A stretch of DNA of 64,000 nt from Alphaproteobacteria bacterium (lineage in GTDB: Bacteria; Pseudomonadota; Alphaproteobacteria; Micavibrionales; UBA2020): the NCBI GenBank assembly GCA_046314385.1, contig JBKBWZ010000004.1:997-64996 (forward strand). Direction: 5' to 3'. Of this stretch, positions 1,144-26,309 are shown in pieces. Numbering within the stretch: the first letter of the stretch is position 1; the number at the start of each line of letters is the position of its first letter. The translations under genes were made by a program, and so were the position numbers. The notes below the pieces were generated by a model. The model was not told where the DNA came from and ran no database searches. It was given only the letters and a program-made list of their open reading frames with translations.

Positions 1144-1968
1144 TCAGCCTGGGCAATCAGCTTTTTCGATTATATCTTTTTCCACCTTTTCAACCCCTTT
1201 AGGAGAAAGATACACAATCTCGTCACTCTCATTATATTCAATCAATTTTTCTCTATGTAGCGGCCTCAGTACATCACGTCGAAAGTTCGATATATGAGAA
1301 TGTTCAATCCAATCAAATAACTCCTCTGCTAATGCAGAACTCTCCGGCGATGAATATAATAGTAAGAGGACTTTCTTCTTCATACTCATATCCGGTTCAA
1401 GCACGCGATGTCTGCCATCTATCGCCCAAATAAATGGAAGAGTTTTGGCAGCAAGGGAATCTAAAAGGCTTTGCGCGTCTTCAATGGGCAAATTGTGATA
1501 GGTCCGTAAAAGTTCACACATGACCCAATCGCTAACCCTCACAATTGTAGCCATATCTATTGAATTCGCTTCAACATCACCCCCAACATGGCCAATCCCC
1601 CGCTTTCCTCTCATCGTGTATAAAAAAACGAGAGCTCTAGGAATGATGATTCGAAGGCTTTCAGGAACGCTTGGGGCATTTGCTTGGATAATAACCCTGC
1701 ATGCATCTGGGAAATTCGGAATATGCGTTCCAAAAGGTACATTATTTCCGGAGGTCACATGCTGTAAAAGACGAATTACGCTTTCACAAAACTTACCAAC
1801 GCTAATCCCAACAGAGTCCATCTCATTTGAATAAGATGCTTCAATCTGTCGTTTCTTAATTTCTTGGTAAGCGTTTATAATTTGACTGCGATACTTTGCA
1901 GGCACATTCGCTAAAGCTTGTTCAAGTAGACTATTTTGCGTCGACATACTCATACTGGCCTTTGTCAT
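1144..1968 (-). CDS. Hypothetical protein with a possible HEPN-like R-x6-H motif; downstream partner of a two-gene module
   Basis: 274-aa ORF. The motif TMRGKRGIGHVGGD fits the Rx4-6H spacing of HEPN/Abi-type domains at weak, motif-only level. It overlaps the upstream gene by up to 38 nt. Alternative Met starts are at 1953 and 1947. Confidence 0.55.
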   Translation of the reverse strand: MTKASMSMSTQNSLLEQALANVPAKYRSQIINAYQEIKKRQIEASYSNEMDSVGISVGKFCESVIRLLQHVTSGNNVPFGTHIPNFPDACRVIIQANAPSVPESLRIIIPRALVFLYTMRGKRGIGHVGGDVEANSIDMATIVRVSDWVMCELLRTYHNLPIEDAQSLLDSLAAKTLPFIWAIDGRHRVLEPDMSMKKKVLLLLYSSPESSALAEELFDWIEHSHISNFRRDVLRPLHREKLIEYNESDEIVYLSPKGVEKVEKDIIEKADCPG

Positions 1969-2773
1969 TCTGTTCCCGCTTTAATAATCTATTATGAACC
2001 GCCCGTCGAAGGGGGGTTGATAGCTCTTGCAAAATATATTTATGCGCAAGTTTTTTTTCACAGTGGTTTTGGATATCCGAAATTGAGCGTGGCTGAGAAA
2101 AAAAACCCTCCTCAGAAAGCATAGATAGCATCGCGCCCGGTCCCGGCCGCCCACTCTTCTTTTTTTGAGAGCCTTTTTTCTCGTGCGCAACAGGTGAAGA
2201 CGTAGAAGTCTTTGGAGAGGCTGGCTTATTTTTTCCAACGGGCTTTTTAAAAATTTTAGAGGGTTTATTTCTCACAGATGAGAAATTTCCTGCATCCAAA
2301 TAATCTTCCCCAGGCTGCATTAAGCGATATATAATTCCTTTTGATGTAGAACTTCTATCTACTTTATCACCCGCATCATCTAGTGCTTGCGTTACAGCTT
2401 GGCGCGTGGTCCTCACTCTAAATTTATCTGTTAACACCATCGCAATTTGACTTGCTCCAAGTCCATCCACATCGTAGTCGCTAGCAGCACGCAACAAGAA
2501 AAGAGATCGTTCCAACACCCTTGGGGCACTCATGACCTGTGGATAAGCTGTTCGATTAAGTTGTTTTAATAAAATTGCCACAGCATCTTGATTGACCTTA
2601 TCTTCTCTTGACAGAGCGTCTGATCGCCTTGCTGCTTTGCGTTCATCAGTATTTGAAGATGACCCTTTTAAAAGTGAGTCGAGCGCGCGATTAAAGGCTG
2701 CTTCGCGTAAATCCTTTGGAACCAATTCCGCAATTTCTGCCGCTTGCTTAATAGCATCTTTAATGTCAGTCAT
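1931..2773 (-). CDS. Hypothetical protein with a Lys/Ser-rich central linker and wHTH-like segments
   Basis: 280-aa ORF. The low-complexity linker KPSKIFKKPVGKNKPASPKTSTSS..KKGSQKKKSGRPGPG separates two globular parts. The gene is overlapped by the next gene. Confidence 0.55.
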   Translation of the reverse strand: MTDIKDAIKQAAEIAELVPKDLREAAFNRALDSLLKGSSSNTDERKAARRSDALSREDKVNQDAVAILLKQLNRTAYPQVMSAPRVLERSLFLLRAASDYDVDGLGASQIAMVLTDKFRVRTTRQAVTQALDDAGDKVDRSSTSKGIIYRLMQPGEDYLDAGNFSSVRNKPSKIFKKPVGKNKPASPKTSTSSPVAHEKKGSQKKKSGRPGPGAMLSMLSEEGFFSQPRSISDIQNHCEKKLAHKYILQELSTPLRRAVHNRLLKREQNDKGQYEYVDAK

Positions 2774-3071: not shown

Positions 3072-6000
3072 TTATTTATCACGAAGAAAACGGCTGGCAT
3101 ACAAAGTACACAATTCTCCGCTGTGTTTTAAAAGATATACGCGTGTGTAGTTTCGATCAAAATATTCGATGTTGTCTTTTTTTCCATCTTCACGGCGAAT
3201 CTCCACTTGAATAATAAGGTCCTGTTTGAGTCTTTGTAGGTTGTCCAACAGGCGACTGGTGTTTGCTATTAACCGCTCCCCATAATTTGCCGCTTGTTCG
3301 TGCCTATGTTCCCGGCGATCTCCCCACACTTGGGAGAACAAAACAGGAGACCCGCCCTGTCTCCAGATACGCTGATCTAGATCCAGTTTTAGCCTGAGTA
3401 AACGGCGTGTTCTTTTAGAGGGCTGTAATCCCGGCCAGGAAACCTTACCTGACAAGAGATCAAGCTTATCAAGCCCAGCCTCATTCTGCCGATCGCTAGC
3501 CCACCCATACATTTTATGCTCATTGGACCTAAATTCTTCATCATCATCAGGAACAAAGTAATCGTAGTGATTTATTGAGGTCTGCAATCTCTTTAATAAA
3601 TCAACAGACCCAGAAGGCGAAATGGCCGCAGAACTGATAGATATATTCTCGACTAAGCTTCCTTCTGACACATTCCATGAACCCCGAAGAACCATATCAT
3701 TCTCTAGGCTGCCTCCAATGAATAGTGCGTCATCAAAATCAGCCGGGATAATTTGCCACTTCCATTCCTGGTATGCTTCATTATTCATTGTTTCTTTTTG
3801 CCAGCGCCTATTCTCCAGAGGAATAGCATCCCTCCTATCTGCAAGCCAAAATCCATCTTCTCTGGTTAATAAATGCCCCCTGAGCCACTTAGCCCAGCTT
3901 TGCTGCCAAGTCTCTAGTACCGCTGTAGGCTTGGTAGCAAGAAGGCCAGCAGCTACTGAGAATATAGCGTGATAGCTGAGATAGAATGAAAGAGTGTCTA
4001 CCCCGGGATAGGCTCCACCATTGCACATGGTGTTTTCACCTTCATAATTCCCACGCAATTTACGTGGATCTTCATTCCATTTCCCCGTAGTTTTATTCTT
4101 TCCCTCTTTTATAGCCCAGTCTGATATAGGCTGCGCTATTTCTTCATATGAGAGATTGAATGCAGTAGACAAGGGCCCAATCCAATATCGATCAAAGTCG
4201 TGGGGAAAATAAAATTCAGTAGCTCGCCACGCATTCATATTCCACCCCGTTGGCTTTTTTCGTGGTTCCGGCGTGAACTGGCTAACATTAACCTCTTTTA
4301 AAAGGCTGATATCACCAGCAGAGATTATATCTGGGTATGCTTGGCCGATCGCTAAGGCTGCTTGTGCTGCAAATTCTTGGATTAGGGCATGATGAGGGGG
4401 TTTTAAAGACCATTGCAGAAACATATTGGTATGGGCCACCAAGGAATCAGGAACTTCTTTGGCGGCCCTTGCTAATGCAACCATTAAATACAGGCGGGAA
4501 TGCCAGCAGTAGAAGGGAAGTGTTTTGTCTGTAAACGCAGGCAGGACTTCTATGTCCATTAAGTTGATAAGCTCCGCAACAACACCTGAAGCCTTTAAGC
4601 GGCATAAATGAACCACACAATGTGCAGCTTGCCACCTTAGCTTTGCTCTAGGGTTAGCCAGCAGAACGTAAATAAAGGCAGCAACAGCGCTATCCATGTC
4701 TTTTGGTGGAACAAGGTCTTTATGCCATGGCCCATCAGCGTCTGTATCTCTGACCTCTATATCTACCCTTCCGAGGGCATATTCGAGGGCGTCGACTGCA
4801 TCTTGAGGCGTTAGTATTCGTGAAATTTTATGGGCAGCAACAAATAAATTTGAAGCATTCAGTTTTTCTACGTTATTTGCTAACCCCTTAAGCAATGAGG
4901 CCATTAACGCCTCATTACCAATTGAACCCAGAGTGCCCATCTTTTCCAGGTCTTTTTCCAAGCTGTATATACTTCTACAAAAAGCCTGAATCCTGCTTTC
5001 TATTAACTCAAGGCAAACAGCCCGTAGTCCATTCTGTACAGATACCCTGTTACGCCATGAAACCTTTGCGTCTTCTAGCGCACTAATAGTGTTCCAAAGC
5101 TCCAGCTCCGAAGAACTGGCAAGAGCCCTTAGGTGGAAGACCTCCTGATCTCGCGGAACCTGTGCAAGCATCCGGTTAAACAGCTCCTGAATAGGCCCGT
5201 ATGGCTTGGATTTCTTAACCTCACGAACTGCAGCATCAATCTCTGCTGTATTAGTAAAGGTCTTACTGCCAATAATCCCTCCCCAGTCAACAACCGGAGG
5301 TTCTTTATCCGCAGACAGATAATCATCGTTGCTGTGGCGCTCTCTAGAACCCTTTTCTTTATGGAGGCCTATAATCTCCTGAAGAGTTTTATGTGAGAGG
5401 ACATATTTATCCGCTATGACTTGTAGCTCTGAGGCCTCCTCCCATTTTCCATGAATACTTATATCCCTAACCAGATGCTGAAACATATATTCTTTCTGTT
5501 TTGCCTTGTGTAACAAGGCATCAGAAAACTCCCCTATGCCCCATCTTCCCTTAAAGGACAATAAAGAGAATGCAGCCTCTGGCGAAATCAAATCATTTTT
5601 TAACAAGAACGAGGTAAGAGATGGCAGCATTTCTCTTATCCAGCCTTTGTCCCGATCAAGCCAACGGCTTAATACCGCAAAACCTGATACAGGACAAATC
5701 TTTGCAATATTGCAGATCACCGTGTCCCAAGGAAAGTGATCAGGAACATGCTCACTCACTACCTCGGCTGCCCTAGCATATTTATACGCAAGTTCAGGAT
5801 TCGACCCCGATACCTCCCCTGCAATTACAGCCAGGTTTGTAATACTCTCCCATCGGTTTATAAGCTCATCTCCAAAGCGATTAACTATCTCCAAGGCATC
5901 ACCGAAATATGCAGCAGCCTCATTTCTGCTCAAGGCCAGCATGGCCCTTGCCAAATCTGTATAGCATTCAGCTCTTTGTGTCGCATCCCCCCTATATTCA

Positions 6001-9000
6001 TCGCTGTCATCTTTTACGCACTTTGCAAAATCATAGGCCTTCTCATGTGCGGGGGTATAGCGTGCCATTGTTCTGGTCATGGCTGTTTTTCGTGGAATAA
6101 AAATAAAAACCTTTGTTTCCCTGAGCCATACCTCCAGCTGATTTATAGTGCCTGTATTCGCCGTTTGGGAGCGAACCAGGATATCCAGCCACAAAGGAGC
6201 GATTTCATTCACTACGCGTGTTTCCGGGTGACCATATCCACGATAATTTTTTGTAAGGGCGAGTATCCTGTCGACTTCATCCTGTACGGGCACATTGTCT
6301 TGCGTGATTATTCTTGCTCTTAGTATGTACCAATGAAGCAGTGTTCCGATGACCTCTTTAAACTCCCTGAAATCTGAATTATGCCCCCTCTGATTTTCAG
6401 GGATTTCCTTTATTTTGTCCGGGGCAATATCAAGTAGCTGTATCTCCTTCCCTTCAAGGGCCGCCTTAAGGCAGTTAAATCTGAGGATGGCATCCCGATC
6501 CCTACTGTGATCAGATGAATAACCGTACTGGGGAATTTCTGGCATATACCTGTCAAGGAGACTTAACAGGGGTTTCTTGAAGGTCTTTATTTGTGCTCCA
6601 GCCTCTATGAGCGCTATAATTCCGTCCAGAATATTATCTGGATGGAAAGAATCTTTTTCCCGCTCGATTTTCTTTGTCTTGAAGAGCAAGGATAGGGCTT
6701 CCTGTATGGCTGTCTCAGGCGGGATACGGGATATTTTTCCGACTTCATTGGCAAGCGCGAGGGAGAGATAAAGGCTTTTCTTAGACGCCAAAGCGGCAAT
6801 TTGGTCTACCAAATCAAAATGGCCGGCGTCTATCAGGCGAGATATTACAGGCGAGCCCACTTGAAAAGAGACCGGCTTGTAAGTCCAGCGCAGCAGATAC
6901 GCCATCATCTCTTTCGGGCCATGCAACATAAGATGGGCAAGTGCCATTGCAGACCTGTCGTGCGTGTCAATCGGCTGTGCTTTTTTCTCTTCCTGAGAAA
7001 GGTCAGCCCAGTGATTAAGCCATTCCTCGGCACAACGAAGCATGTTGCGGGCCTCTCCCTGACATGTCTCATCTCCCGCCAAAATGGGTGCTCCATAGGC
7101 AAATCCTGACCCCATCCATTCGCCAGCGTGATGCCTGAAAACTATTTCCTGAGCTCTCTTGGCACCAAAAAGGGTCGCAACCAAATCATGATTATCAAGA
7201 AGAATATCTATCTCACGGCTATTCCCTGCGGCCTCTTCCCCAGCTCTTATTGCAAGTTTTACCGCGTCTAGATATAGGTTTTCCTTTACTGCTGCTTTTA
7301 ATGCAAAGTGGACTCGTCGCATTACAATGCGCCGTTTTTCTATCGGATTATCTGTAGGCAATGCCTCATCTCCCGAGGCAAGTGACATCAGCTTTCCAAT
7401 CTGTCCTGCCTGCCAGAGTAGTTCGGGCAAGGCCATGGCTACATATGGATCTGATTTTTGTGGCTCTAGCGCATTAACCAGCTGGAGATATTGTGCTGGC
7501 TTTGCAAAATTGTCACGGAACCACGTGTCTACCGGCTCATCCCGGAAATGAAGGGCGCCATCCAGCTCCATTAAGTAGCGGCCTATGTCCGAGATAAAGC
7601 TGCGAACTAGCGCTTCTGATACATTAGCTGCTTGGGCCAGCGTTTTTATTGGAACCAAGGGAGGCAAGGCAGCGAGCGCAATGCATAAAGTATCTATTTG
7701 CGTTGGTAATGCAGAATCGCCTTTAACTTTCGCGATGGTTTTCTGTAGCTGGTGCGATATTGTGTCTTCCACGCCTAATGGTTTTGGCCCGAAGCTGGAC
7801 ATCATATCCTGCAAAGAGCCTTCTGAAGATAAAGCATTGGCCTGCACCCTCGGGTTGGCACTGGACATACGATGAAACTCCCTAACCGTCTGGTCTGAGG
7901 CTTCAGGATAATGACTTCTCAAAAGCTGCGCGGTTTCCGATAACTCGAAGGGGTGTAATGGTAGCTGTTCAATAAAAGGGGCAGGGTTCAAATGAGAGGT
8001 GACGCGCTCAGTTCTGGAGACAAATACCAAGCGACAATAGGCGGGCACCTGCACATTCAGCAGGTTCTGTGTGAAAGACTGTGAATTAGGGGCCTCTAAC
8101 TCAGCCCCCATTTGAGAGTTATCTGCTGCATCCAGCACTACCAGTACCAAGGCATCTGGCTTAAATTGCCTGATAGTAGCAGCAACTTGTGTCAGACGAT
8201 TCAAGAAAGCGGCAATATACTGTCCCCTATCCGCACTAGCAGAAGGAATCAGGGGATCACACAGCCCCCTGGACGAAAACTCGTTAACTATCTGGACCAA
8301 GCCACGATCATATTTATGCCTTGGATTGCTGGGATCCCTGTATAAACCGCCCGCAAAACCGTCGAAAACAACACTCTCAGATCCATCCGGCATAAGGGCG
8401 GGCAGGCGTAATGCCAAGGTAGATTTCCCCACCCCGCCAGAAGCGTGTATAATTAGTGCAGACTTAGCTTCAATTATTTTTTCCGCAATTTCCCCTTCTT
8501 GAGCACGTGGTATATATTTCTCAGGAAGCTTATATTCCTCTGAAGGCGGGGCAGGACGCAATTGACCTTCGGATACATTGAAAGCTGTAAGGACATCATG
8601 TCGACGCACAGGTTTTTTGTTATCTGTTAGAAGTCCCTTATCTCGAACAAGTTTTTCTAGGTTGAGAGGGGCAATAGTATCATATCCTGGTAGATATTTA
8701 CTGATCTCGCCTTTGAGGGTCCATTCTTGGTCTGGTCGACTGGCCTCGTTTGATTGAAACCTAAATAGACTAGAAAACAGCCTAAATCTGCTATCTGATA
8801 ATTTTGCAGCGGCCTTTAGACTATTTAGGGCGTTTTTCGCATGTCCTGTTTCCTGTCGCCCTTCACAAGCCGCTACCAAAGCTTTTTTGACGTTCTCAGA
8901 AATTGGCCGATTGGTTACAAAGAGATACTCCAGCTTCCCTTGAGTGACAGTTTCGCCATACTTGGTGCATTTTTCCTCAAAGTCTTGCGCAAAAGCCCCA

Positions 9001-9323
9001 AAGGTTTCTGCAATGCCGCTTGCGGGCCAAGGAGTGTGGTAATCGCTGGGAGAATACTTTAGCTGTGCGCGCACAATTTTACGCGCGCCCTCAAAGTCCT
9101 CTCCCCCATAGTATTCCGTGGTATCTGATTTAAGCGTTGCATCTTCCGCCGTGGCAGTATCATGCGGGCTAATCGATTCGACGCCCACAGCCTTCAGATC
9201 CGAAAGAGGGTTCAATAAGATTAAGCATCTTCTTGCCGCCCAAACTACGTGAAAAGCATGGCCTTCGTTGCTTGCTCGAACTTTATCTATGTCACCCTCG
9301 GGTAACGCCATTTTCAAACACAC
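3072..9323 (-). CDS. Giant 2083-aa protein: N-terminal PD-(D/E)xK (Cap4/DUF4297-like) nuclease-type head, P-loop STAND-type NTPase, and a ~1500-aa uncharacterised C-terminal region
   Basis: 6.25-kb uninterrupted ORF in AT-rich DNA. N-terminal pattern is GHAFHVVWAARR..VGVES..D..AQLKYS. Walker A is ASGGVGKST (nt ~8418-8444) and Walker B is LVLVVLDAADN (nt ~8127-8162). An alternative start is MALPEG at 9311. Confidence 0.85.
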   Translation of the reverse strand: MCLKMALPEGDIDKVRASNEGHAFHVVWAARRCLILLNPLSDLKAVGVESISPHDTATAEDATLKSDTTEYYGGEDFEGARKIVRAQLKYSPSDYHTPWPASGIAETFGAFAQDFEEKCTKYGETVTQGKLEYLFVTNRPISENVKKALVAACEGRQETGHAKNALNSLKAAAKLSDSRFRLFSSLFRFQSNEASRPDQEWTLKGEISKYLPGYDTIAPLNLEKLVRDKGLLTDNKKPVRRHDVLTAFNVSEGQLRPAPPSEEYKLPEKYIPRAQEGEIAEKIIEAKSALIIHASGGVGKSTLALRLPALMPDGSESVVFDGFAGGLYRDPSNPRHKYDRGLVQIVNEFSSRGLCDPLIPSASADRGQYIAAFLNRLTQVAATIRQFKPDALVLVVLDAADNSQMGAELEAPNSQSFTQNLLNVQVPAYCRLVFVSRTERVTSHLNPAPFIEQLPLHPFELSETAQLLRSHYPEASDQTVREFHRMSSANPRVQANALSSEGSLQDMMSSFGPKPLGVEDTISHQLQKTIAKVKGDSALPTQIDTLCIALAALPPLVPIKTLAQAANVSEALVRSFISDIGRYLMELDGALHFRDEPVDTWFRDNFAKPAQYLQLVNALEPQKSDPYVAMALPELLWQAGQIGKLMSLASGDEALPTDNPIEKRRIVMRRVHFALKAAVKENLYLDAVKLAIRAGEEAAGNSREIDILLDNHDLVATLFGAKRAQEIVFRHHAGEWMGSGFAYGAPILAGDETCQGEARNMLRCAEEWLNHWADLSQEEKKAQPIDTHDRSAMALAHLMLHGPKEMMAYLLRWTYKPVSFQVGSPVISRLIDAGHFDLVDQIAALASKKSLYLSLALANEVGKISRIPPETAIQEALSLLFKTKKIEREKDSFHPDNILDGIIALIEAGAQIKTFKKPLLSLLDRYMPEIPQYGYSSDHSRDRDAILRFNCLKAALEGKEIQLLDIAPDKIKEIPENQRGHNSDFREFKEVIGTLLHWYILRARIITQDNVPVQDEVDRILALTKNYRGYGHPETRVVNEIAPLWLDILVRSQTANTGTINQLEVWLRETKVFIFIPRKTAMTRTMARYTPAHEKAYDFAKCVKDDSDEYRGDATQRAECYTDLARAMLALSRNEAAAYFGDALEIVNRFGDELINRWESITNLAVIAGEVSGSNPELAYKYARAAEVVSEHVPDHFPWDTVICNIAKICPVSGFAVLSRWLDRDKGWIREMLPSLTSFLLKNDLISPEAAFSLLSFKGRWGIGEFSDALLHKAKQKEYMFQHLVRDISIHGKWEEASELQVIADKYVLSHKTLQEIIGLHKEKGSRERHSNDDYLSADKEPPVVDWGGIIGSKTFTNTAEIDAAVREVKKSKPYGPIQELFNRMLAQVPRDQEVFHLRALASSSELELWNTISALEDAKVSWRNRVSVQNGLRAVCLELIESRIQAFCRSIYSLEKDLEKMGTLGSIGNEALMASLLKGLANNVEKLNASNLFVAAHKISRILTPQDAVDALEYALGRVDIEVRDTDADGPWHKDLVPPKDMDSAVAAFIYVLLANPRAKLRWQAAHCVVHLCRLKASGVVAELINLMDIEVLPAFTDKTLPFYCWHSRLYLMVALARAAKEVPDSLVAHTNMFLQWSLKPPHHALIQEFAAQAALAIGQAYPDIISAGDISLLKEVNVSQFTPEPRKKPTGWNMNAWRATEFYFPHDFDRYWIGPLSTAFNLSYEEIAQPISDWAIKEGKNKTTGKWNEDPRKLRGNYEGENTMCNGGAYPGVDTLSFYLSYHAIFSVAAGLLATKPTAVLETWQQSWAKWLRGHLLTREDGFWLADRRDAIPLENRRWQKETMNNEAYQEWKWQIIPADFDDALFIGGSLENDMVLRGSWNVSEGSLVENISISSAAISPSGSVDLLKRLQTSINHYDYFVPDDDEEFRSNEHKMYGWASDRQNEAGLDKLDLLSGKVSWPGLQPSKRTRRLLRLKLDLDQRIWRQGGSPVLFSQVWGDRREHRHEQAANYGERLIANTSRLLDNLQRLKQDLIIQVEIRREDGKKDNIEYFDRNYTRVYLLKHSGELCTLYASRFLRDK

Positions 9324-9563
9324 TTTTTTGTAAAAAATCCTGGAGAGGATAACATTTTTCGTTTTACCAGTAACTTCACCATTGCAACTTTTAAGTACGC
9401 AATTGGGCTTACGGGCACCACTGCAAAATATCTAAATGACCGCGCCATATTATGAAATAAATGACCTCTATTTTGCACTGCCTGAGTGATAACATACGAT
9501 GTAGAAAGGATCAGATAGAACGCCTTCGGTGTTATGGCTACAGGGCTTCGGAAACATCTGATG

Positions 9564-11714
9564 CTAGCAATCTCTGCCTGAAGTTTCCTGCCTTCTCCAT
9601 GCATCTAGAAATGTCTTAATGACCTCAGGGCAAGCATCTCCGTCTCTGGTTTCGATTTCTTCCAGCCTCTGACGAAACCGCGTACGATCAATAATATCAT
9701 CTAAGCCTGAAACAGCAGCGCGAACAGTACGGCGTGTTACAGTATCGCTCATGGTGTGGGTCCATGAGTGAGAGGTGAAAATCTTCGCAAAGTGGGCAAC
9801 CATCTCATCATTATCCAGTTTTGAAGATGTCCAGACCCTTGCCTCTGCACCCCCATCATTGGCGAACTCGCGCCAACGGAACAAAATGCTATGAAGGCCT
9901 CGGCACTGAAGGAGGCTATCATCAGCGGCGGATGTCCTGATTTTCTCTAGAGCCATAGGCACCAATTCATCCAAGTCCGCACGGGTAACAAGGCAGTTTT
10001 CTTCTGTTTCAGGCTCCCTTCCTTCCCTGGGGTGGTACCCCGAGTACGCGGAGGAAGTGAAATCAACGATCCACCCCAAGGACGCCTGTCGACAGGCCGC
10101 CATGAATATAGCTGATCTCTGAGGCAAGGAAGTCCTGTCCAAGGTCAGCTTCCTGAGTAACCAGTGAATTCTTAGCTCGTTACTCCCGACTGAAAATGCC
10201 CCGGCTAGATCGGCATCTGTATGTAGTTCATCCGCCAAGGCAAATACAGTCTCCAGAAGGGGCCGTGCTTTTTCTAAAGGGATATCCTGAGCATGCAAAG
10301 TCATGCCCTCCAGAAGAAGAGCTGATTTTGTGCCACCGGATTTCCTCTTTACTTGAAGCGCGGCCTGCAGCTTTGATCGAATGAATGGCCTATCTTCTGC
10401 TCTTCGTATGAGTTCATCTATCTCCTGCTGCGGCACGGCATCTGGACTAATTGAAAAGCGGAAGTATGAATCAAAATGTGATTTTGAGCATACTCTGCGC
10501 TGACGTTCCCATTCATCAGTAGACGAATAGTGGACATTGCTCCAGATGCTTTCTAAGTGGGGGAATAACCGGTAGAGGCCTCTCTTGTAGCGGGCGCGCG
10601 CCGCTTCCGGAATGGAAGTCAAGAAGACCTCATCGTATTTAGCCGCCTGATCCCTGCTTGACGCGTAATAATTAACCCCCTTTTCACAGAGAAGAAGCTT
10701 ATTCTGGCGTAATGCGCGGTAAAGCTGGGGCTGGAACAAGCGTAATGCCTCCAAGGCCACGAAATCACCGATATCCACTTGCCCTGCTATAGATGGCCAA
10801 GTCACGGTAAGGGTGTAGCCTAGCCTTGTGGCATCCCTTGGCGCCTTGATCTCATGCGCAACGATATCATTAAACAAATTCATAAATCTGACTATATTGC
10901 TATCCCCGGGATGGCCACATACTGCCTCAATATGAGACAGCAGCTGCCGATGCAAATCCTCCTGCTGTGGCTCGGGTATTTCAAACGACGCCTGGACTAT
11001 CTTCTCCAGATAATGCGGGCCCTCGGAAGGAAAACGCTCGGAAACAATCTTTTCCGCGAGCGGGCGGTCATACACGAGCAGATACATGACATTCGGAAGC
11101 CTGCCCACGGACTTGACAAGGCGGAAGATCAGCAAGGCTTCTTCCGGGGACAGGCGATCTATATCGTCAATAATGACAAGGAACCTTTTCTTCTGTTCGG
11201 CCAGCATCCTCGAAAGTTCAGCATGCAGTCCCTCGACGCTTTCATCCTGACTAATCAAGCTACCTAGCCATCCCATGGACCCCGAAGCGATTTTTCCCAA
11301 ACCACCAGCCCCCATGGTTTCAGCGGCAGCCTCTATTATTGAGCCTGTACGGAGGAGCTGTGCACCGAGCTTGGGCATGAGCTTCTTAAATCTTTTAGAG
11401 AGGCTCGGGCCGATCCCGGCATATAAGTCGCGAAAAAATGCTAATGCCAGTGCTTCTTCCCCCCTGAACCACCAACAGTTAAAACGAATGATCTTCAGAT
11501 CCCCTTTGTCAACCGCTTCCTGCAGGTGATGCAAGACAAGGTTAACAACACTGCTTTTTCCTGAACCCCACGGGCCATTCAGTGCAATAACAGACCCTAC
11601 TGGAGAAGACATTTTTAGCACGCTCCGGGCCAGCGCCTGGGCAAACGGGTCTATACCAAAAAGATCTTCCTTGGGCTCCTGGATAGGCTGATCGTTATAA
11701 TGTGCGGCGCTCAT
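9564..11714 (-). CDS. KAP-family P-loop NTPase
   Basis: N-terminus DLFGIDPFAQALARSV..VIALNGPWGSGKSS (Walker A, nt ~11550-11576). A long insert precedes the Walker B FLVIIDDIDRLSPEEALLIFRLVKSV. This is the typical KAP layout. Confidence 0.9.
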   Translation of the reverse strand: MSAAHYNDQPIQEPKEDLFGIDPFAQALARSVLKMSSPVGSVIALNGPWGSGKSSVVNLVLHHLQEAVDKGDLKIIRFNCWWFRGEEALALAFFRDLYAGIGPSLSKRFKKLMPKLGAQLLRTGSIIEAAAETMGAGGLGKIASGSMGWLGSLISQDESVEGLHAELSRMLAEQKKRFLVIIDDIDRLSPEEALLIFRLVKSVGRLPNVMYLLVYDRPLAEKIVSERFPSEGPHYLEKIVQASFEIPEPQQEDLHRQLLSHIEAVCGHPGDSNIVRFMNLFNDIVAHEIKAPRDATRLGYTLTVTWPSIAGQVDIGDFVALEALRLFQPQLYRALRQNKLLLCEKGVNYYASSRDQAAKYDEVFLTSIPEAARARYKRGLYRLFPHLESIWSNVHYSSTDEWERQRRVCSKSHFDSYFRFSISPDAVPQQEIDELIRRAEDRPFIRSKLQAALQVKRKSGGTKSALLLEGMTLHAQDIPLEKARPLLETVFALADELHTDADLAGAFSVGSNELRIHWLLRKLTLDRTSLPQRSAIFMAACRQASLGWIVDFTSSAYSGYHPREGREPETEENCLVTRADLDELVPMALEKIRTSAADDSLLQCRGLHSILFRWREFANDGGAEARVWTSSKLDNDEMVAHFAKIFTSHSWTHTMSDTVTRRTVRAAVSGLDDIIDRTRFRQRLEEIETRDGDACPEVIKTFLDAWRRQETSGRDC

Positions 11715-11739
11715 GAGAAAACCTCTATGTTATGGCTGT

Positions 11740-12648
11740 TTATGCTGCTGCTCCTTCCAGCTCTTTTAGTTCTTCCTTAGCTGCATCAATCAGGTCAATA
11801 AGGGGCATCTCTATTGCCGCAAGGTTGGCTTGTGGATAGTAACTCTCAAAATCGCCGCCTTCCGCGTGTATGGCGACAATTTTAGACAGGCATTCCATCT
11901 CGATTTCAAAAATTACATTGCTCAGCCTTTGTGCATTTGCCCAATAAGACTTGGATATGCCATCAACCGTGTAGACCGTGGAATGATGAAGGAAGGCAAG
12001 AGTGTCTTCCTCATCCATGCCCCTTTCCTTGACGAATTCTTCTATAACCTCACGATAAGCGGCAGAAGAAGTTTCTTCCCAATCCTCGTCATGGGATGCC
12101 CAGGCATCAAGTCCCCTATAAAACTCAAGCGGCTGTCCATTGTAGTCAACTTTAGCCTCATCGTTCCACGCGTTGCACATATCACTTGCATCATCCAGCA
12201 AATATATATGACGCAGTTTATTCGGATTAAATGCCAGCATTCTATTATTTAATGTTGATATGCAGAGCCATTCTTCGTCTTTCGCTATTTTTGCAAGAGC
12301 GCTTGATACTTCATTGGCCGTTTGTAATGTAATCGGGAACCATTTGACTTTCTCCTGCCCTGGAAGAAGAAGTCCGATGTGTCCCCAGAATCCATCCGTA
12401 ATATTTTCCCGGCCGGCAAGTGAGAAGCATAGATGGTTAGTCGCTACTTTGTCAGAGAATGGGTTGACATCGAGCAGATCGTCCACACTTGTCGAAAAGA
12501 TCATCGCAAGATCCCGCAGATCGCTCATGCTGGGCTCTGCCTTGCCGCTTTCCCAGCGCGCAATTGTCTGCTGCGTCGTTTTAAGCTTTTCAGCCAATTG
12601 CTGCTGCGTGTAGTTACCGGACTGCCGAAGGGCTTTCAGACGTTTCAT
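11740..12648 (-). CDS. XRE-family HTH domain fused to a ~230-aa uncharacterised C-terminal domain
   Basis: LRQSGNYTQQQLAEKLKTTQQTIARWESGKAEPSMSDLRDLAMIFSTSVDDLL is a classic Cro/C1 HTH. The gene ends 25 nt upstream of the KAP gene start, which suggests an operon. Confidence 0.85.
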   Translation of the reverse strand: MKRLKALRQSGNYTQQQLAEKLKTTQQTIARWESGKAEPSMSDLRDLAMIFSTSVDDLLDVNPFSDKVATNHLCFSLAGRENITDGFWGHIGLLLPGQEKVKWFPITLQTANEVSSALAKIAKDEEWLCISTLNNRMLAFNPNKLRHIYLLDDASDMCNAWNDEAKVDYNGQPLEFYRGLDAWASHDEDWEETSSAAYREVIEEFVKERGMDEEDTLAFLHHSTVYTVDGISKSYWANAQRLSNVIFEIEMECLSKIVAIHAEGGDFESYYPQANLAAIEMPLIDLIDAAKEELKELEGAAA

Positions 12649-12697
12649 TTTGATCTCCTTATGGAGACATAATTATCACCCGAAATTCGTGTTGACA

Positions 12698-12712
12698 ACA
12701 CATATAATGTGT
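12698..12712. promoter_or_regulatory. Perfect palindrome ACACAT-ATA-ATGTGT in the divergent promoter region; candidate operator for the adjacent XRE protein
   Basis: It lies 50 nt upstream of the XRE gene start, in the AT-rich 175-bp spacer between divergent genes. Confidence 0.35.
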
Positions 12713-12823
12713 ATTTTTAATCTGGCTGGGCCTAAAAATGCAACTATAGACACTATACGCTCTAAAATGCTCTTTTTTTGTACTTATATATCAAGAGAGA
12801 ATCTGTTCAACTTAAACCACTAG

Positions 12824-13111
12824 ATGTACACGATAACTTCAGTAAGGAGAAAAGGCGCAGTGGCACGGGAAATATTCGGCCTGATTCCCATGGAAAAGAT
12901 AAGGGCTAATGTCCTCGTAAACTGCCTGAACTCACAAACCGGCCGCATGGAAGATCAGGTCATTGTTTCCGCACTTATTGTCAGATCCACTATGAGCGGC
13001 CTGAACTTCAGGGGTATTGACCCGTCAGATTATCTCAGGAATTTTATACACAATATGAAGTTCACGAAAACACGTGGCTTTGAAGCTGTGGAAAAAATGG
13101 AGGCCTTATAA
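12824..13111 (+). CDS. Hypothetical small protein (95 aa)
   Basis: The ORF is divergent from the XRE gene. Its stop TAA at 13109-13111 abuts the next ATG at 13113. No motif was recognised. Confidence 0.4.
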   Translation: MYTITSVRRKGAVAREIFGLIPMEKIRANVLVNCLNSQTGRMEDQVIVSALIVRSTMSGLNFRGIDPSDYLRNFIHNMKFTKTRGFEAVEKMEAL

Positions 13112-13112
13112 A

Positions 13113-13649
13113 ATGCCCTTATCTCAGCTCACTTGGCCAGAATGGGCCGGCATTATAGGAGCGGTTTCCGGTGTACCTGCACTATTTATCCAGCTCATCC
13201 AATACCTGCACTCCAAGCCGCGTCTGCGGGTAGATGTCTCACCCGAGTGCATCATCATCAGAGACGAGTTTAAGGTTAAGAATGACTGTAATCCGGATGA
13301 AGAAGGGTACAGGTATGCGACCCATGTCGTCATTACAAATGTTGGACAAATGACGGCATCTATACTTAAAATCGAGATACGCGCTAAAAACTATGGATGG
13401 ATAGACACCCTGCTCAGCAAGTTGCCTGTACTCAAGAAAACAAGAAGGGGAATTATATCACATGACAAGGCGATTATTGACCAAACATACAAAACACCCT
13501 TTACGCTAGATGCAGGCCATGTCTGGATTGGAATTGTAGATGCTCTGCCATACCGTGAAAACCTGCATCATTTTCCACATGTATATCTTGAAATAAAGAC
13601 ATCACATAAAAAGAAGCCGCAAGTCAAAAAAATCAAACTGGCGGCCTAA
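13113..13649 (+). CDS. Hypothetical membrane-anchored protein (178 aa)
   Basis: ATG at 13113 lies 9 nt after GGAGG. There is an N-terminal hydrophobic helix, WAGIIGAVSGVPALFIQLIQYL. Confidence 0.5.
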   Translation: MPLSQLTWPEWAGIIGAVSGVPALFIQLIQYLHSKPRLRVDVSPECIIIRDEFKVKNDCNPDEEGYRYATHVVITNVGQMTASILKIEIRAKNYGWIDTLLSKLPVLKKTRRGIISHDKAIIDQTYKTPFTLDAGHVWIGIVDALPYRENLHHFPHVYLEIKTSHKKKPQVKKIKLAA

Positions 13650-14261: not shown

Positions 14262-14405
14262 TCATTTCAATGCTGCCTTGTCATTTAAGCGATATTCATC
14301 CGCCTTTCTTTCCCATTCTTCCTCCGATAGCGGAACATCGCAATAGAGCGGGTCCAGAACGATGCCACCACGCTGGGAGCTGGCCTTTATCGTATCGGCA
14401 ACCAT
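14262..14405 (-). pseudogene. Remnant of a DNA methyltransferase gene (47 codons) with an internal deletion removing the SAM-binding FGGSGTT motif
   Basis: My translation is MVADTIKASSQRGGIVLDPLYCDVPLSEEEW... This parallels ..VADALKDASARGDIVLDP[FGGSGTT...IE LDP]LYCDV of the intact methylase at 14909-16174. Nucleotide similarity is also visible: aacatcgcaatagagcgggtc vs gacgtcgcaatagagcgggtc. Confidence 0.55.
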
Positions 14406-14411
14406 ACCCGC

Positions 14412-14912
14412 TCAGTAAATATCCTCCCCTGCTTCCCAGCGGCGCATCGCTTCGGCCTGATCTCGCAGCATGATCTGGCGCTGCTCTTCGGCCTCTATTC
14501 TGAACTTTTCCAGAGTCTGCGTGCCAGAAACGACTAGCACGCCACCCCCTTTTCTCGCCTTCTCTTTGGCCAGCGCCTCCTCCAGCTCCGCAATCTTGTT
14601 TGCATGCGGTCCCGTGACGTTCTGAGTGTAAATTTCGGGGAAAAAGCGCGCGTCCATCTCGATCAGTTTTATCAGGACACGCGGGTCTTTCTCTACCAGC
14701 GCCTGATGTCTCAGTGTCATCCAGAGCGCCTGGCGCGTAGAGAGATTCTTGTTGCCGGACAGCTTGTCGCGCATAAAAATACCGAATTCGGTTTTTGTAT
14801 TTTTGCTCCCCTTCGGACGGCCGCCACGGTTTATCGGGTTTCCGTCAGGCGCTCCGAACTGGCGACGCTTGGGCAAATTTCCATCGTTTTTGTCCTTTCC
14901 TTTATCGCTCAT
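14412..14912 (-). CDS. Phage-type DUF5681-like protein (GRPKGSKN motif)
   Basis: The motif GNPINRGGRPKGSKN is present. The start MSDKGKDK overlaps the methylase stop in an ATGA arrangement at 14909-14912. The track start at 14981 is probably too long. Confidence 0.65.
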   Translation of the reverse strand: MSDKGKDKNDGNLPKRRQFGAPDGNPINRGGRPKGSKNTKTEFGIFMRDKLSGNKNLSTRQALWMTLRHQALVEKDPRVLIKLIEMDARFFPEIYTQNVTGPHANKIAELEEALAKEKARKGGGVLVVSGTQTLEKFRIEAEEQRQIMLRDQAEAMRRWEAGEDIY

Positions 14913-16174
14913 GCTTTTGCTCCCGCAGCCAATGCACGGCCGCCTGTAAACTTCTCCCAGCGGCGGATGATGACGTCGCAATAGAGCGGGTCGAGCTCGA
15001 TCAGGCGGGCTTTGCGGCCGGTTTTTTCGGCGGCGATCAGGGTGGTGCCGGAGCCGCCGAAGGGGTCAAGCACGATATCGCCGCGGGCGGAGGCGTCCTT
15101 GAGCGCATCGGCAACGAGGGCGAGGGGTTTGACCGTCGGATGCATGGCAAGCTCCTGCATACGCCCGCCCGCGAAGGAGTTGACGCCGGGGTATTCCCAG
15201 ACGTTGGTGCGGTAGCGGCCGTGTTTGCCGAGCTGGATGTTGTTGATATGCGGCGCCGTGCCCTTTTTGAACACAAAGACCAGCTCGTGGCGGCTGCGGT
15301 AAAAGCTGCCCATCCCGCCGTTATCTTTCACCCAGACGCAGAGATTCTGAAGGCCGAGGCCTGCCATGTCGCCCGCTGCGGAAAGCTCGTCAATATGGCG
15401 CCAGTCCATGCAGCTATAGATAATCGCGCCGTCTTCGGCATAATCGGCCATCAGCTTGTGCGATTGATAGAGGAACTGGGTAAAGGCCTGCGTATCCATC
15501 TCTCCCGAGGCCATGGCGAATTCGCGGTGCTGGATCTTGCCCGAATTCCCGACATGGCCTGCGATTTTGACGTTATAGGGGGCATCTGTAAAACAGAGGC
15601 GGGCTTTGGCCGTTCCCATCAGGGCGGCATAGCTCTCCGGCTGCGTCGCATCGCCGCAGTAAAGCAGGTGCTCGCCGAGCTGCCAGAGGTCGCCCGGACG
15701 CACGACGGCCGGTCCTGTCGCCGGCGCCGGAATATCTTCATCTGCGCCAGGCACGAGCGGCTCCAGTATGATATCCAGCTCCGGCACCTCGAAGCCCGAC
15801 AGCGTCAGGTCGATATCCGGCAGCTTGATCATGATTTCCTGAAACTCCGCCGCAAGCAGGGCGTGGTCCCAGCTAGCTTCTTCGGCGATACGGTCGTGGG
15901 CGATACGCAGCAGACGCAGCTGCTCTTCGGCCAGATGGCCGGCGCGAATGACCGGGATTTCTTCCATCTGCAAACGGGGCGCGGCCGCCACCAGATGGGC
16001 GCCGATCACTGTATTGCAATCTGCGTCGATCACCACGGGGGGCATAAAGCCACATTCGCGGATCATACGCTCGGTTTTGAGGATTTGTTTCTTGCCCGGA
16101 ATACGGAACTGGCGGGCGTAATCTTTGACCAGCTCGAGGCGCAGGTATTCCACCTGCAGATGATTATGAATCAT
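14909..16174 (-). CDS. ParB-like N-terminal domain fused to an N6/N4 DNA methyltransferase (phage-type orphan MTase)
   Basis: CFTDAPYNV is a DPPY-type catalytic motif. VLDPFGGSGTTLIAAEKTGRKARLIELDPLYCDV is the SAM-binding motif. The N-terminus LRLELVKDYARQ..PPVVID..VIGAHLVAAA is ParB-like. The start is placed at MIHNH (16174). Confidence 0.9.
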   Translation of the reverse strand: MIHNHLQVEYLRLELVKDYARQFRIPGKKQILKTERMIRECGFMPPVVIDADCNTVIGAHLVAAAPRLQMEEIPVIRAGHLAEEQLRLLRIAHDRIAEEASWDHALLAAEFQEIMIKLPDIDLTLSGFEVPELDIILEPLVPGADEDIPAPATGPAVVRPGDLWQLGEHLLYCGDATQPESYAALMGTAKARLCFTDAPYNVKIAGHVGNSGKIQHREFAMASGEMDTQAFTQFLYQSHKLMADYAEDGAIIYSCMDWRHIDELSAAGDMAGLGLQNLCVWVKDNGGMGSFYRSRHELVFVFKKGTAPHINNIQLGKHGRYRTNVWEYPGVNSFAGGRMQELAMHPTVKPLALVADALKDASARGDIVLDPFGGSGTTLIAAEKTGRKARLIELDPLYCDVIIRRWEKFTGGRALAAGAKA

Positions 16175-16439
16175 AGCGGTTTCCACATAGATGGCGTTAA
16201 ACGTGCGGAAACCGGGCAATAAAAAAAGGCATGGTTTCCGGAAAAAAACTTCAACCAGAACCATGTCTGTGTTGAAACCCATCCGGACCATGCCGCGATA
16301 CAGGAGCTTGAGGCTGGTTCAGGAGCTTATAGACCGGGCCACGCCATGTTGACCTCTCTCCAGAACACGGCGACCATGCGCCACCCTCAAACCGGGATGA
16401 CTCAATGATGTCAAATTTCGCTCCCGAAATCAAGAATTT

Positions 16440-17249
16440 TCAGTTGGCATTCAGGCCGTGCACACGCACGCCGAGTTTTCGTTTATAGAGCGCTTCGATT
16501 TCAATACTTTCGCGCGCGCTGACATTGCTCGGCAGAGTCTGCAAAATCGAATACACGAAGTGCCGGCGATGATAGGCCGGGTCTTCGGCGAGGAGTTTTT
16601 TGAGCTCCTTGTTGTGCCCGTGGCCGGTCGCCGCATAGCTCTTCCAGCGGCCCCAGATGCCCTCGTCGCCATAGGCCGAGCCGACATACTGTTTGCCGGT
16701 CTTGCGGTCGAGGATCAGGTAGACGCCATTGACCGCCGAGAGGTGATGCTTCCAGTCATGGTTCGCCTCCGGATTGCGGATCAGCGTCTCCAGCTCGTCG
16801 AATTCGAGCACGAAGTCGAGCAGGCCGGGGAAGTTGCCGATATATCCCTCCGGCAGGATTTCGATGACCGTTTTCGGCTGCCGGTGATACCACTGCAGCC
16901 ATGCCCGCGCGCTTGCGCCCCAGTCAATCACCAGCCGGTCGACAAGGGGGTTGAAATCCGGCACCTGCTCGAGATCATACACATAATGGCCGCGCACGAA
17001 CCGCCCGCCCAGCACCTTGAACACTCCGAAGAAAAGAGACCGTCCACGCTCGAGCCCGATAAATGACACGATATAGTCACAGTCCGCAAAAACATCTCGG
17101 CCCTGTTCTTTCTGGTACGCGAGGAGTTTTTTACGGTCTTTTACAACCTCGCGGTATTGCGCACGATTGTCTTTGTGGCGGACAAGCTTGACCCGCTTCC
17201 CCTCCAGCACAGTTGATCGGGTGTCCAGCAATTGTTTCAGAGTGAGCAT
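16440..17249 (-). CDS. GIY-YIG nuclease family protein with an N-terminal extension
   Basis: NGVYLILDRKTGKQYVGSAYGDEGIWGRWKSY. The start MLTLKQ at 17249 lies 8 nt after AGGAG. Confidence 0.8.
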   Translation of the reverse strand: MLTLKQLLDTRSTVLEGKRVKLVRHKDNRAQYREVVKDRKKLLAYQKEQGRDVFADCDYIVSFIGLERGRSLFFGVFKVLGGRFVRGHYVYDLEQVPDFNPLVDRLVIDWGASARAWLQWYHRQPKTVIEILPEGYIGNFPGLLDFVLEFDELETLIRNPEANHDWKHHLSAVNGVYLILDRKTGKQYVGSAYGDEGIWGRWKSYAATGHGHNKELKKLLAEDPAYHRRHFVYSILQTLPSNVSARESIEIEALYKRKLGVRVHGLNAN

Positions 17250-17254
17250 GATAA

Positions 17255-17677
17255 TTATCTCCTGCATACATCAAGAATGGCGCCGTTCAGGTAATAGGCC
17301 TCCTGCATGTCGGCCGGTTTGCCGACCACCGTCTGGGCAATCGCCCCATCGCGGAACAGCGTCACAAAAGGCACGGCGCCATTATAGCCGCCCATCCTGT
17401 TTTTGCTGTTCACGGTTCCGCAGACCTTCCAGCCGAACATCTGCTGCGTGCCGTACATCGAAGACTCCTTGAAATAGCCCTTGGCGGGTTTTTCGAAGGT
17501 ATAAAGCGGGGATGTGGGGTCGATTAGCAAGGTTGCGAATTCCTGCCGGATCATCGACTGGTGATGCGCCGGTGGCGGCGGCCCGTAATCGGCATTGGCG
17601 ATTTCTTCGGGTGATATGGGCGTTGCGCAGCCAGTCAGGAACAACAGCCCCGCAAGTATGATTTTATATCTGAACAT
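17255..17677 (-). CDS. Lipoprotein of unknown function
   Basis: Signal peptide plus lipobox: MFRYKIILAGLLFLTGC. Confidence 0.7.
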   Translation of the reverse strand: MFRYKIILAGLLFLTGCATPISPEEIANADYGPPPPAHHQSMIRQEFATLLIDPTSPLYTFEKPAKGYFKESSMYGTQQMFGWKVCGTVNSKNRMGGYNGAVPFVTLFRDGAIAQTVVGKPADMQEAYYLNGAILDVCRR

Positions 17678-17863: not shown

Positions 17864-19153
17864 ATGGCCTTTATCATCGACAAAGAAGAACTGAAACCCG
17901 GCCTGATTATCTTCCGCCGGGGCGATGTGGAGCATAAGAATTTCTATTGCCGCATCAAACTTCCCAAGGCAGACCGCTATAAAACTATTTCCCTCAAGAC
18001 TTCCAATATCAACGAAGCCCGCGACCGCGCCTATGATTACGATGCAGATGTCAGGTTTCGGATAAAGCACGAAGTTCCGATATTCGATAAGCCCTTTAGT
18101 GATGTGTCCAAGGAATACATTGAATCCCAGAATTTACGCGCAAAGATGGGCGAGATTGGGCATGAGCGCGTCAGAAAGCTAAAATCTTCTGTCAACAACC
18201 ATTTAGACCCCTATGTAGGAAACATTCAAATCAGCATGATCGGTCAAGACCGATGGGCCAATTATCCCGCATGGCGGCGTGAACACGGGAAGGGCCAGTT
18301 TCGTGAGCAGGTCAGCGATGCCACGGTCAAATTTGAAATGATGATTTTCCGGGCCATCATGGATTTTGCCATCAAAAAACGCTACATCACCGCCGATAAG
18401 CGGTTTGAAGGAAGGCCGCAATTCAAGCTGATGCGCCGGGATGCGTTTTCTATTGAAGAATACCGCGCCTTGCACACGCGGGGCCGCGCATGGGTCAAGG
18501 CAGCGACCAAGGACTCAAGCATCTGGTATCGCACCATGACCTATAATTTCGTCCTTATCATGTGCAATACAGGGATGCGCCCGCCGGAAGCCAAAAATTT
18601 GCGCTGGCGGGATATTTCCAAAGGGAAAGACAAGGACGGACGCGATCTTATTATTCTGTCTGTCCGAGGCAAGGGAAAATCAAGGCAGCTTGTCGCCCCG
18701 CCGAGTGTCGGGGAATATCTCGACCGGGTTAAAGCCATGTCCAAATCCACCGGGCCGGACGACCCGGTATTTACGACCAAGGTAGGAAAAGCCACAAAAT
18801 CCCTTTATGCGGAGCTTGTAACCCAACTTTTAATAGAAGCGAAATTGCGCGAAGGCCCATCAGGGATTCCGCGCTCGACTTATTGTTTCCGTCATACTTA
18901 TGCAACATTCCGTTTAGGCGAAGGTGTTGACGTTTATTTTCTGGCGCAGCAAATGGGAACATCAGTTGAAATGATTGAACAGCATTACGGCCATGTAAAC
19001 ACCGTCAAACACGCCGACCGCGTGTTGCATGGCATGGGAAGCTGGGAATCCTTACCCGAAGACGACAACAAACCGGATAATAGCCAGAGCGGAAAAGCTG
19101 GGGCGGCCCGCCCCGGTCCCGAACGGCGCAAGAATCCAAAGGGCAAGAAATAA
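17864..19153 (+). CDS. int: Tyrosine-type site-specific integrase
   Basis: C-terminal catalytic region: NTGMRPPEAKNLRW..YCFRHTYATFRL..LAQQMGTSVEMIEQHYGH (R...HxxR...Y). Confidence 0.9.
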   Translation: MAFIIDKEELKPGLIIFRRGDVEHKNFYCRIKLPKADRYKTISLKTSNINEARDRAYDYDADVRFRIKHEVPIFDKPFSDVSKEYIESQNLRAKMGEIGHERVRKLKSSVNNHLDPYVGNIQISMIGQDRWANYPAWRREHGKGQFREQVSDATVKFEMMIFRAIMDFAIKKRYITADKRFEGRPQFKLMRRDAFSIEEYRALHTRGRAWVKAATKDSSIWYRTMTYNFVLIMCNTGMRPPEAKNLRWRDISKGKDKDGRDLIILSVRGKGKSRQLVAPPSVGEYLDRVKAMSKSTGPDDPVFTTKVGKATKSLYAELVTQLLIEAKLREGPSGIPRSTYCFRHTYATFRLGEGVDVYFLAQQMGTSVEMIEQHYGHVNTVKHADRVLHGMGSWESLPEDDNKPDNSQSGKAGAARPGPERRKNPKGKK

Positions 19154-21306: not shown

Positions 21307-21310
21307 GACC

Positions 21311-22588: not shown

Positions 22589-22605
22589 GAAAGCTGGAAA
22601 TTATC

Positions 22606-25791: not shown

Positions 25792-25829
25792 TTATAGATT
25801 TAACCCCAACCCTAACAGGAGTGAATAGA

Positions 25830-26309
25830 ATGAAACAAAGACTGCTTTTAACAACGCTAAGCGTTCTGGCTTTATCATTTCCGGCATACGCGGAAGATGG
25901 ACACGGCCATGCAGACGATAAGGTACATGCTCATGAATCTTTCGAAGCGCATGGCGACGGGCATGGTCATGATGACGGAAAGCCTCATTTTTCCGTCGCC
26001 AAGCCGGACAGCGCGGCGGCGGCATGGGCTTTAATAGATGAAACCATTGTTGCTGCTGAAAAGGCTATTGAAGCGGGTAACGCGGACGCTTTACATGAAT
26101 CCGGCGAAAAATTTGAGGCCGCCGTTAAAGCCCTGCAAGATTTTTCCGATAAAGGTAATGAACGGTTGGGGCAAGCCCTTGGACAGCTTTCAAAGACGGT
26201 TGATCGTTTCCACCATGCGGCGGAAGATAACGACAAGGCGGGTGCCTCCGAGTCGCTTTCTCTTTTGGCTTCACAAAAGGATTTAGTGAAAACACTGTAT
26301 CAGCCGTAA
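25830..26309 (+). CDS. Periplasmic His-rich protein (putative metal-binding accessory)
   Basis: Signal peptide MKQRLLLTTLSVLALSFPAYA, followed by EDGHGHADDKVHAHESFEAHGDGHGHDDGKPH. Confidence 0.6.
   Translation: MKQRLLLTTLSVLALSFPAYAEDGHGHADDKVHAHESFEAHGDGHGHDDGKPHFSVAKPDSAAAAWALIDETIVAAEKAIEAGNADALHESGEKFEAAVKALQDFSDKGNERLGQALGQLSKTVDRFHHAAEDNDKAGASESLSLLASQKDLVKTLYQP

Follow-up and report, generated by a model that had tools for sequence, protein, structure and literature searches.

The AVAST type III protein SeAvs3 is known to recognize the large terminase of phages and to have anti-phage activity (PMC13601566). PifA of the F plasmid is an abortive-infection protein that is triggered by particular phage proteins and is tied to membrane damage; the known phage triggers, T7 gp1.2 and gp10, concern F PifA only (PMC8594841). 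Here, we analyzed a locus encoding distant relatives of both proteins in a 64,000-nucleotide stretch of an alphaproteobacterial metagenome-assembled genome (MAG; contig JBKBWZ010000004.1, positions 997 to 64,996 of the forward strand), hereafter called the window. A preliminary description of positions 3072-13649 had proposed an unnamed defence system in which a protein with an XRE-type helix-turn-helix (HTH) domain, a KAP NTPase, and a giant nuclease-STAND protein form one sensor, switch, and effector module. Our analysis confirms a defence locus in a low-GC island; it is probably a composite defence island that holds an Avs3a gene and a PifA-family gene as two independent immune genes of named kinds, not one multi-gene system. 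The open reading frames (ORFs), their strands, the 25-nt gap, and the 240-nt spacer are positioned exactly as first described:

3072-9323, minus strand: the giant gene, assigned to Avs3a; 2083 amino acids with a GTG start, or 2079 amino acids from the ATG at 9311 in the source record
9324-9563, minus strand: the spacer from the PifA-like gene to the Avs3a gene, 240 bp, with neither a consensus promoter nor a terminator detected on the minus strand
9564-11714, minus strand: the gene assigned to PifA-family KAP NTPases; 716 amino acids
11740-12648, minus strand: the XRE-fusion gene, 25 nt upstream of the PifA-like gene; 302 amino acids

The likening of the giant to Avs/AVAST-type nuclease-STAND proteins was borne out by profile matches. 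The protein matched the PADLOC Avs3a profile (PDLC02167) with 1647 bits, residues 13-2074 aligning to positions 5-2090 of 2090, and the NCBIfam model NF041816, "AVAST type 3 anti-phage nuclease/ATPase Avs3a," with 1725 bits. Its alignment with SeAvs3 in the PDB (8dgc_A, 1099 bits) runs end to end, residues 14-2077 on 6-2084. The Avs3a architecture consists of an N-terminal PD-(D/E)xK-type nuclease, a STAND ATPase, and a long C-terminal sensor. The nuclease motif D67...Q87-x-K89 is present and aligned with the SeAvs3 motif, Walker A reads ASGGVGKST (G296-GVGKS, with K300), and Walker B reads VLVVLDAAD (D398). The nuclease D/QxK and the Walker A/B residues are invariant in an alignment with two other Avs3a proteins, and a catalytic role is predicted for D67, Q87, and K89 from the family. 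The closest relatives are 41-51% identical and form a small divergent sub-clade. Judged by its sequence, the giant is a divergent Avs3a (AVAST type III).

Every motif needed for a SeAvs3-like mechanism is intact in the window protein. By homology to SeAvs3, the C-terminal sensor would bind the phage large terminase (PMC13601566), the STAND ATPase would then drive tetramerization, and the N-terminal nuclease would then degrade double-stranded DNA, aborting the infection. The end-to-end homology of the sensor region is the basis on which we predict terminase recognition and an anti-phage role for this protein.

The middle gene proved to encode a KAP NTPase, as first proposed, with a match to Pfam KAP_NTPase (PF07693) over residues 22-305 (E = 6.3e-41). 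Moreover, the protein aligns over nearly its full length with the PADLOC PifA profile (PDLC02361; 411 bits, residues 6-709 on 6-718 of 720) and, by BLASTP, with F-plasmid PifA at 23% identity over ~700 amino acids (E = 3e-36), covering residues 8-673. The homology to PifA thus extends over the whole protein, the C-terminal half included. Walker A (GPWGSGKS) lies near residue 50 and Walker B (VIIDDID) near residue 183. No strongly hydrophobic segment was detected in the protein (maximum KD19 1.17), no related solved structure was found, and no relatives of the gene were found in viral contigs. The family comprises more than 1500 homologue clusters, many of them at 52-57% identity to the window protein. 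On the strength of these alignments, the KAP NTPase is a PifA-family protein. By analogy to F PifA, it would act as a single-protein abortive-infection sensor and effector triggered by specific phage proteins.

We then asked how often homologues of the three genes occur together. The survey covered ~45 full-length XRE-fusion loci, taken with flanks of 10 kb from species-representative genomes; seven PifA-like loci in Rhodopseudomonas, Acidovorax, Bradyrhizobium, and Chromobacterium, with homologues of 52-57% identity; and 80 full-length metagenomic relatives of Avs3 together with the four closest relatives of the window Avs3a. No PifA-like or Avs3-like gene was found within 10 kb of the XRE-fusion gene (0/~45), the one exception being Methylosinus sp. 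C49, in which the XRE-fusion gene lies ~480 bp upstream of an Avs3a-Avs3b pair and PifA is absent. None of the seven close PifA-like loci contained an XRE-fusion or Avs3 gene; the PifA-like gene stood alone there, in variable regions with toxin-antitoxin pairs, integrases, transposases, and a Gabija-like pair. The 80 metagenomic Avs3 loci contained no PifA-like gene, no full-length XRE-fusion gene, and none of the small ORFs of the window, and the four closest relatives of the window Avs3a (46-51% identity) had neither PifA nor XRE-fusion nearby (0/80 and 0/4). Among plasmids, Avs3-like giants had no PifA nearby except in Agrobacterium. On plasmid pAt1D132b of Agrobacterium fabrum (NZ_CP033025.1, 14599-23719), a PifA-like gene (38% identity, PADLOC PifA 378 bits) is divergent from, and 193 bp away from, the gene for a 2211-amino acid Avs3a-like protein, for which no Avs3b match was obtained.

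Some of these loci have further features. In Methylosinus sp. C49 (AP022332.1), the XRE-fusion homologue is 32% identical to the window protein and is preceded by a 508-amino acid protein without a family match and a TacA/acetyltransferase toxin-antitoxin pair; the Avs3a there is canonical (PADLOC, 3087 bits). The Agrobacterium pair is flanked by a SIR2/AAA-ATPase cluster on the side of the PifA-like gene and, a few kb beyond the giant, by a site-specific integrase. In the Bradyrhizobium loci L093-L095, a 277-amino acid protein with a weak HTH_3 match is encoded directly upstream of a 917-amino acid NB-ARC STAND protein, at a distance of ~7 kb from the PifA-like gene. The 277-amino acid protein is unrelated to the window XRE-fusion by tblastn, and the order of HTH gene and STAND gene is alike.

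One difference between the window and other Avs3 loci lies immediately downstream of the giant. In 70 of the 80 metagenomic loci, Avs3b directly follows Avs3a, overlapping or abutting it, and most of the remaining 10 are interrupted by a contig end. Avs3b is also present in loci L178 and L182, the nearest relatives of the window Avs3a. A hidden Markov model (HMM) built from 73 Avs3b sequences found nothing in a six-frame translation of the 64-kb window. The 298-bp gap that follows Avs3a gave a tblastn mini-hit at 3014-2961 (E = 1.5), but its reading as the remains of a degraded Avs3b was rejected because the 73-sequence HMM, run with filters off, did not support it. Two genes occupy the position in question:

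1931-2773, minus strand: p280, directly downstream of Avs3a
1144-1968, minus strand: p274, same orientation, with a 38-nt overlap with p280

Either could be imagined to be a divergent Avs3b; neither matches Avs3b, and both were rejected. Searches of p280 and p274 in Pfam, PADLOC, NCBIfam, PHROGs, and the PDB returned no match. We note that p274 contains the sequence RGKRGIGH, which we read as a putative Rx4-6H HEPN-like motif. The two genes may constitute a separate uncharacterized two-gene module at the place where Avs3b normally sits. A further relative lacking a detectable Avs3b is locus L180 (Logan SRR32046556_39017), whose Avs3a is the second closest to that of the window (50% identity); ORFs of 77 and 259 amino acids come after it, and an ATPase_2/NB-ARC protein and a PIF1-type helicase are encoded ahead of it. 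Loss of Avs3b may be recurrent in the window Avs3a sub-clade.

With these results in hand, the arrangement of the locus can be weighed. The idea that the XRE-fusion (as switch), the KAP NTPase (as sensor), and the giant (as effector) constitute one new three-gene abortive-infection system draws on their common orientation and tight spacing, 25 nt in one case and, in the other, a 240-nt spacer in which no terminator was detected. It also draws on the partial recurrences in Methylosinus (XRE-fusion with Avs3a/b) and on the Agrobacterium plasmid (PifA-like with Avs3-like). However, the trio recurs in no other genome surveyed, and each of the two large proteins is a complete sensor-plus-effector from a family known to act alone. 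The window PifA-like protein and Avs3a are, moreover, each related less closely to the Agrobacterium pair than to proteins encoded alone or beside Avs3b. Because both window proteins have their closer relatives among unpaired ones, the PifA/Avs3 adjacencies of the window and of Agrobacterium arose independently. The preliminary description had itself named profile searches and tests of co-occurrence as the checks that could refute it. The profiles assign the giant to Avs3a and the KAP gene to the PifA family, and the homologues do not co-occur; on both grounds the undescribed three-gene system fails, and we found no evidence for a three-part module. We regard it as the least probable of the arrangements considered here. 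A second proposal, that the PifA-like NTPase replaces the missing Avs3b as the partner of Avs3a or forms a synergistic pair with it, would explain why a PifA-like gene neighbours Avs3a-like genes that lack Avs3b, as in the window and, 193 bp off, beside the Agrobacterium giant. Yet these are two cases only, one of them being the source of the hypothesis, and the orientation differs, tandem in the window and divergent in Agrobacterium. The L180 Avs3a has neither a detectable Avs3b nor PifA, no PifA lies near a Janthinobacterium giant that belongs to the Agrobacterium type, and PifA (716 amino acids, a KAP NTPase) is unrelated to Avs3b (~240 amino acids). This substitution is very improbable as well, and it ranks as less likely than the proposal of a portable defence switch discussed below for the XRE-fusion family.

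The interpretation as two independent immune genes, which we prefer, has points against it as well. The 1725 bits scored by the giant with NF041816 fall below the equivalog cut-off of 2800 bits, which is why the source record labels it a "hypothetical protein." Lacking an Avs3b gene as partner, the window Avs3a may be crippled or work differently. The trigger and effector mechanism proposed for the PifA-like protein is an extrapolation across 23% identity to the sole experimentally studied PifA. Finally, the Agrobacterium PifA/Avs3 neighbours and the Methylosinus XRE-fusion/Avs3a/b locus could reflect some functional coupling; because there is a single independent recurrence, we treat a coupling of PifA and Avs3 as possible but unsupported.

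The first gene of the row is, as initially described, an XRE HTH fused to another domain. HTH_3 (PF01381) matched residues 4-58 only (E = 5.3e-15). The remaining C-terminal domain (C-domain) of ~240 amino acids is conserved and has a two-lobed alpha/beta fold in an AlphaFold2 model of high confidence, with predicted local distance difference test scores of 93.5 (whole protein) and 88.8 (C-domain alone). The C-domain matched nothing in Pfam, PADLOC, NCBIfam, or PHROGs. When the whole model was compared with the PDB and BFVD by Foldseek, only the HTH was matched, and the PDB matches (434 and P22 repressors, SinR, and DdrO) were confined to it. The C-domain alone gave a best Foldseek E value of 0.34 and no PDB match, and a profile search against PDB sequences again matched the HTH only. 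The family comprises ~106 clusters at E < 1e-30 from Alpha-, Beta-, and Gammaproteobacteria, Elusimicrobia, Spirochaetes, and Clostridia, with W88, G89, G92, P105, N135, D152, and E175 as invariant residues. Homology to PifC, the product of the gene upstream of pifA on the F plasmid, was considered and rejected (BLASTP, E = 1.3).

The XRE-fusion and PifA-like genes are probably co-transcribed. By analogy, the XRE-fusion most likely fills the role that PifC has for pifA of the F plasmid: it would repress its own operon from the divergent intergenic region at 12649-12823, and its C-terminal domain could receive a signal. Downstream of XRE-fusion genes in other genomes we found Cas9, Abi_2, TIR, Fic, Avs3a/b, a resolvase, an integrase, a transposase, and a TetR regulator, and all-against-all clustering of the ORFs neighbouring the ~45 loci revealed no conserved neighbour. 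The family is widespread and tied to many defence and mobile-element genes, not dedicated to PifA or Avs3. These neighbourhoods agree with a portable regulator or a self-contained gene, in either case one of variable and mobile regions, and not with a dedicated subunit.

The second of these options would make the XRE-fusion a self-contained element, for example an immunity repressor of a mobile element or a sensor acting as a single protein, that came to lie upstream of the PifA-like gene without regulating it. Consistent with this, the next gene is convergent in ~17 of the ~45 loci, close PifA-like homologues lack such a partner, and the neighbourhoods of the family are rich in integrases, recombinases, and transposases. 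On the other side, the same-strand gap to the window PifA-like gene is just 25 nt, a co-oriented gene follows within 150 nt in ~14 of 45 loci, several of these being defence genes (Cas9, Abi_2, and TIR), and the window layout parallels pifC-pifA of F-type plasmids. We consider the self-contained element rather unlikely. The first option can be taken further, to a family of undescribed, widespread, signal-responsive regulators that gate unrelated cargos (PifA-like, Avs3a/b, Cas9, Abi_2, TIR, and Fic) in several phyla as a portable "defence switch"; so broad a claim is more doubtful still, and we offer it tentatively. Two Clostridia MAGs encode distant XRE-fusion relatives of ~400 amino acids, followed by an unknown protein of 225-260 amino acids and then by a type II Cas9 (Cas9_REC, E = 3e-139). 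These relatives could be a regulator of CRISPR-Cas loci.

On the other side of the XRE-fusion gene lie three further features:

12649-12823: the divergent intergenic region, AT-rich; presumed promoter/operator region
12824-13111, plus strand: p95, an ORF of 95 amino acids and of uncertain status, absent from the gene calls of the source record
13113-13649, plus strand: p178, an ORF of 178 amino acids, annotated as 191 amino acids from a GTG at 13074

The "perfect palindrome" that had been reported in the divergent spacer resolved into two overlapping palindromes with 6-bp arms, at 12689-12701 and 12698-12712. They do not rise above chance, given that 250 of 500 shuffles of the spacer were equal or better, and the palindrome was rejected as an operator. 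The description of p95 and p178 as an abutting pair with a transmembrane segment holds in part: the p178 ORF starts 1 nt after the p95 stop and p178 has one hydrophobic segment, yet p95 is uncalled in the source record. p95 matched positions 354-435, the C-terminal end, of phrog_38135 (441 positions, E = 1.4e-11), a family of phage proteins with unknown function, and tblastn found no match for p95 in phages. p178 is a single-pass membrane protein with its hydrophobic segment at approximately residues 11-32. It had no match in Pfam, PADLOC, NCBIfam, or PHROG and no relatives in plasmids or viral contigs; its family, of unknown function, is genuine but very small, as 19 representative clusters of 1.84 billion matched at E ≤ 1e-3. 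We could demonstrate no link between this pair and the other genes of the locus.

The wider surroundings are in agreement with an island. The low GC content noted in the preliminary description was reproduced, at 0.468 for 3072-13649 versus 0.552 over 20-64 kb of the window. Island markers adjoin the locus, namely an N6_N4 DNA methylase (14909-16291, minus strand), a GIY-YIG protein (16440-17267, minus strand), and a tyrosine integrase (17864-19153, plus strand). About 15 kb from the locus, a gene at 28411-29331 (minus strand) encodes an AbiEii nucleotidyltransferase toxin (Pfam, E = 1e-38); an ORF at 29328-30095 (minus strand) overlaps it upstream and could be its AbiEi partner. This AbiEii pair (28411-30095) is a further defence or toxin-antitoxin module. 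Together, the region has the marks of an integrated, low-GC, integrase-associated island with further defence content. We found no tRNA or Rfam feature marking an island boundary in the window, no convincing att-like direct repeats within 1-20.5 kb, and no near-identical DNA in E. coli genomes.

Additional observations concern neighbouring sequences. The protein p173 (433-954) gave weak AbiEi matches (E ~0.015). A 29-nt direct repeat, 86% identical, occurs at 14335-14363 and 14973-15001, around an ORF of 189 amino acids (14412-14981). Just past the integrase, positions 19993-28350 (plus strand) hold an RND efflux operon (OEP, an HlyD-type membrane-fusion protein, and an AcrB-family pump) followed by a P-type ATPase, which resembles a cluster for the efflux of metals or drugs.

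In summary, what had been put forward as a new defence system comes down to divergent Avs3 and PifA members, and the labels "hypothetical protein" and "P-loop NTPase fold protein" in the source record can be improved. What merits follow-up is the XRE-fusion family and the Avs3b-less Avs3a. Against the near-universal linkage of the two genes, a natural Avs3a without Avs3b provides a handle on the role of Avs3b. In soil Alpha- and Betaproteobacteria, PifA emerges as a large family whose genes mostly stand alone and which is very distant from its only studied member. A modest lead is the conserved XRE-fusion family, which is encoded beside diverse defence genes and has a C-domain that is modelled with confidence but lacks a match.

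Compared with the known systems, the giant has the same length and three-part architecture as SeAvs3 of Avs3 (AVAST type III), with ~33-35% identity to mainstream Avs3a proteins; loci of this type usually carry Avs3b, whereas the window locus does not. F-plasmid PifA of the Pif system, a KAP P-loop NTPase of ~720-740 amino acids, is a full-length homologue of the window protein. In pifC-pifA of F-type plasmids, as in the window, a gene for a DNA-binding protein lies upstream in the same orientation at a very short gap. The upstream gene is PifC in the one case and an XRE-fusion unrelated to PifC in the other, and F PifA is plasmid-borne, whereas the window gene is chromosomal, in a genomic island of an alphaproteobacterium. 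Unlike F pifA, the closest relatives of the window gene have no upstream regulator at all.

XRE/Cro-C1 regulators that have C-terminal sensor or oligomerization domains and control defence or mobile-element genes include CapH, ImmR, the C-proteins of restriction-modification systems, and BrxR-type regulators. No CapP- or ImmA-like protease partner was found near the window XRE-fusion, and its C-domain sets it apart, having no counterpart in Pfam, PADLOC, NCBIfam, or the PDB even though the model is confident. What it shares with these regulators is the N-terminal HTH_3 domain, a site immediately upstream of the defence cargo, and a promoter region that is divergent.

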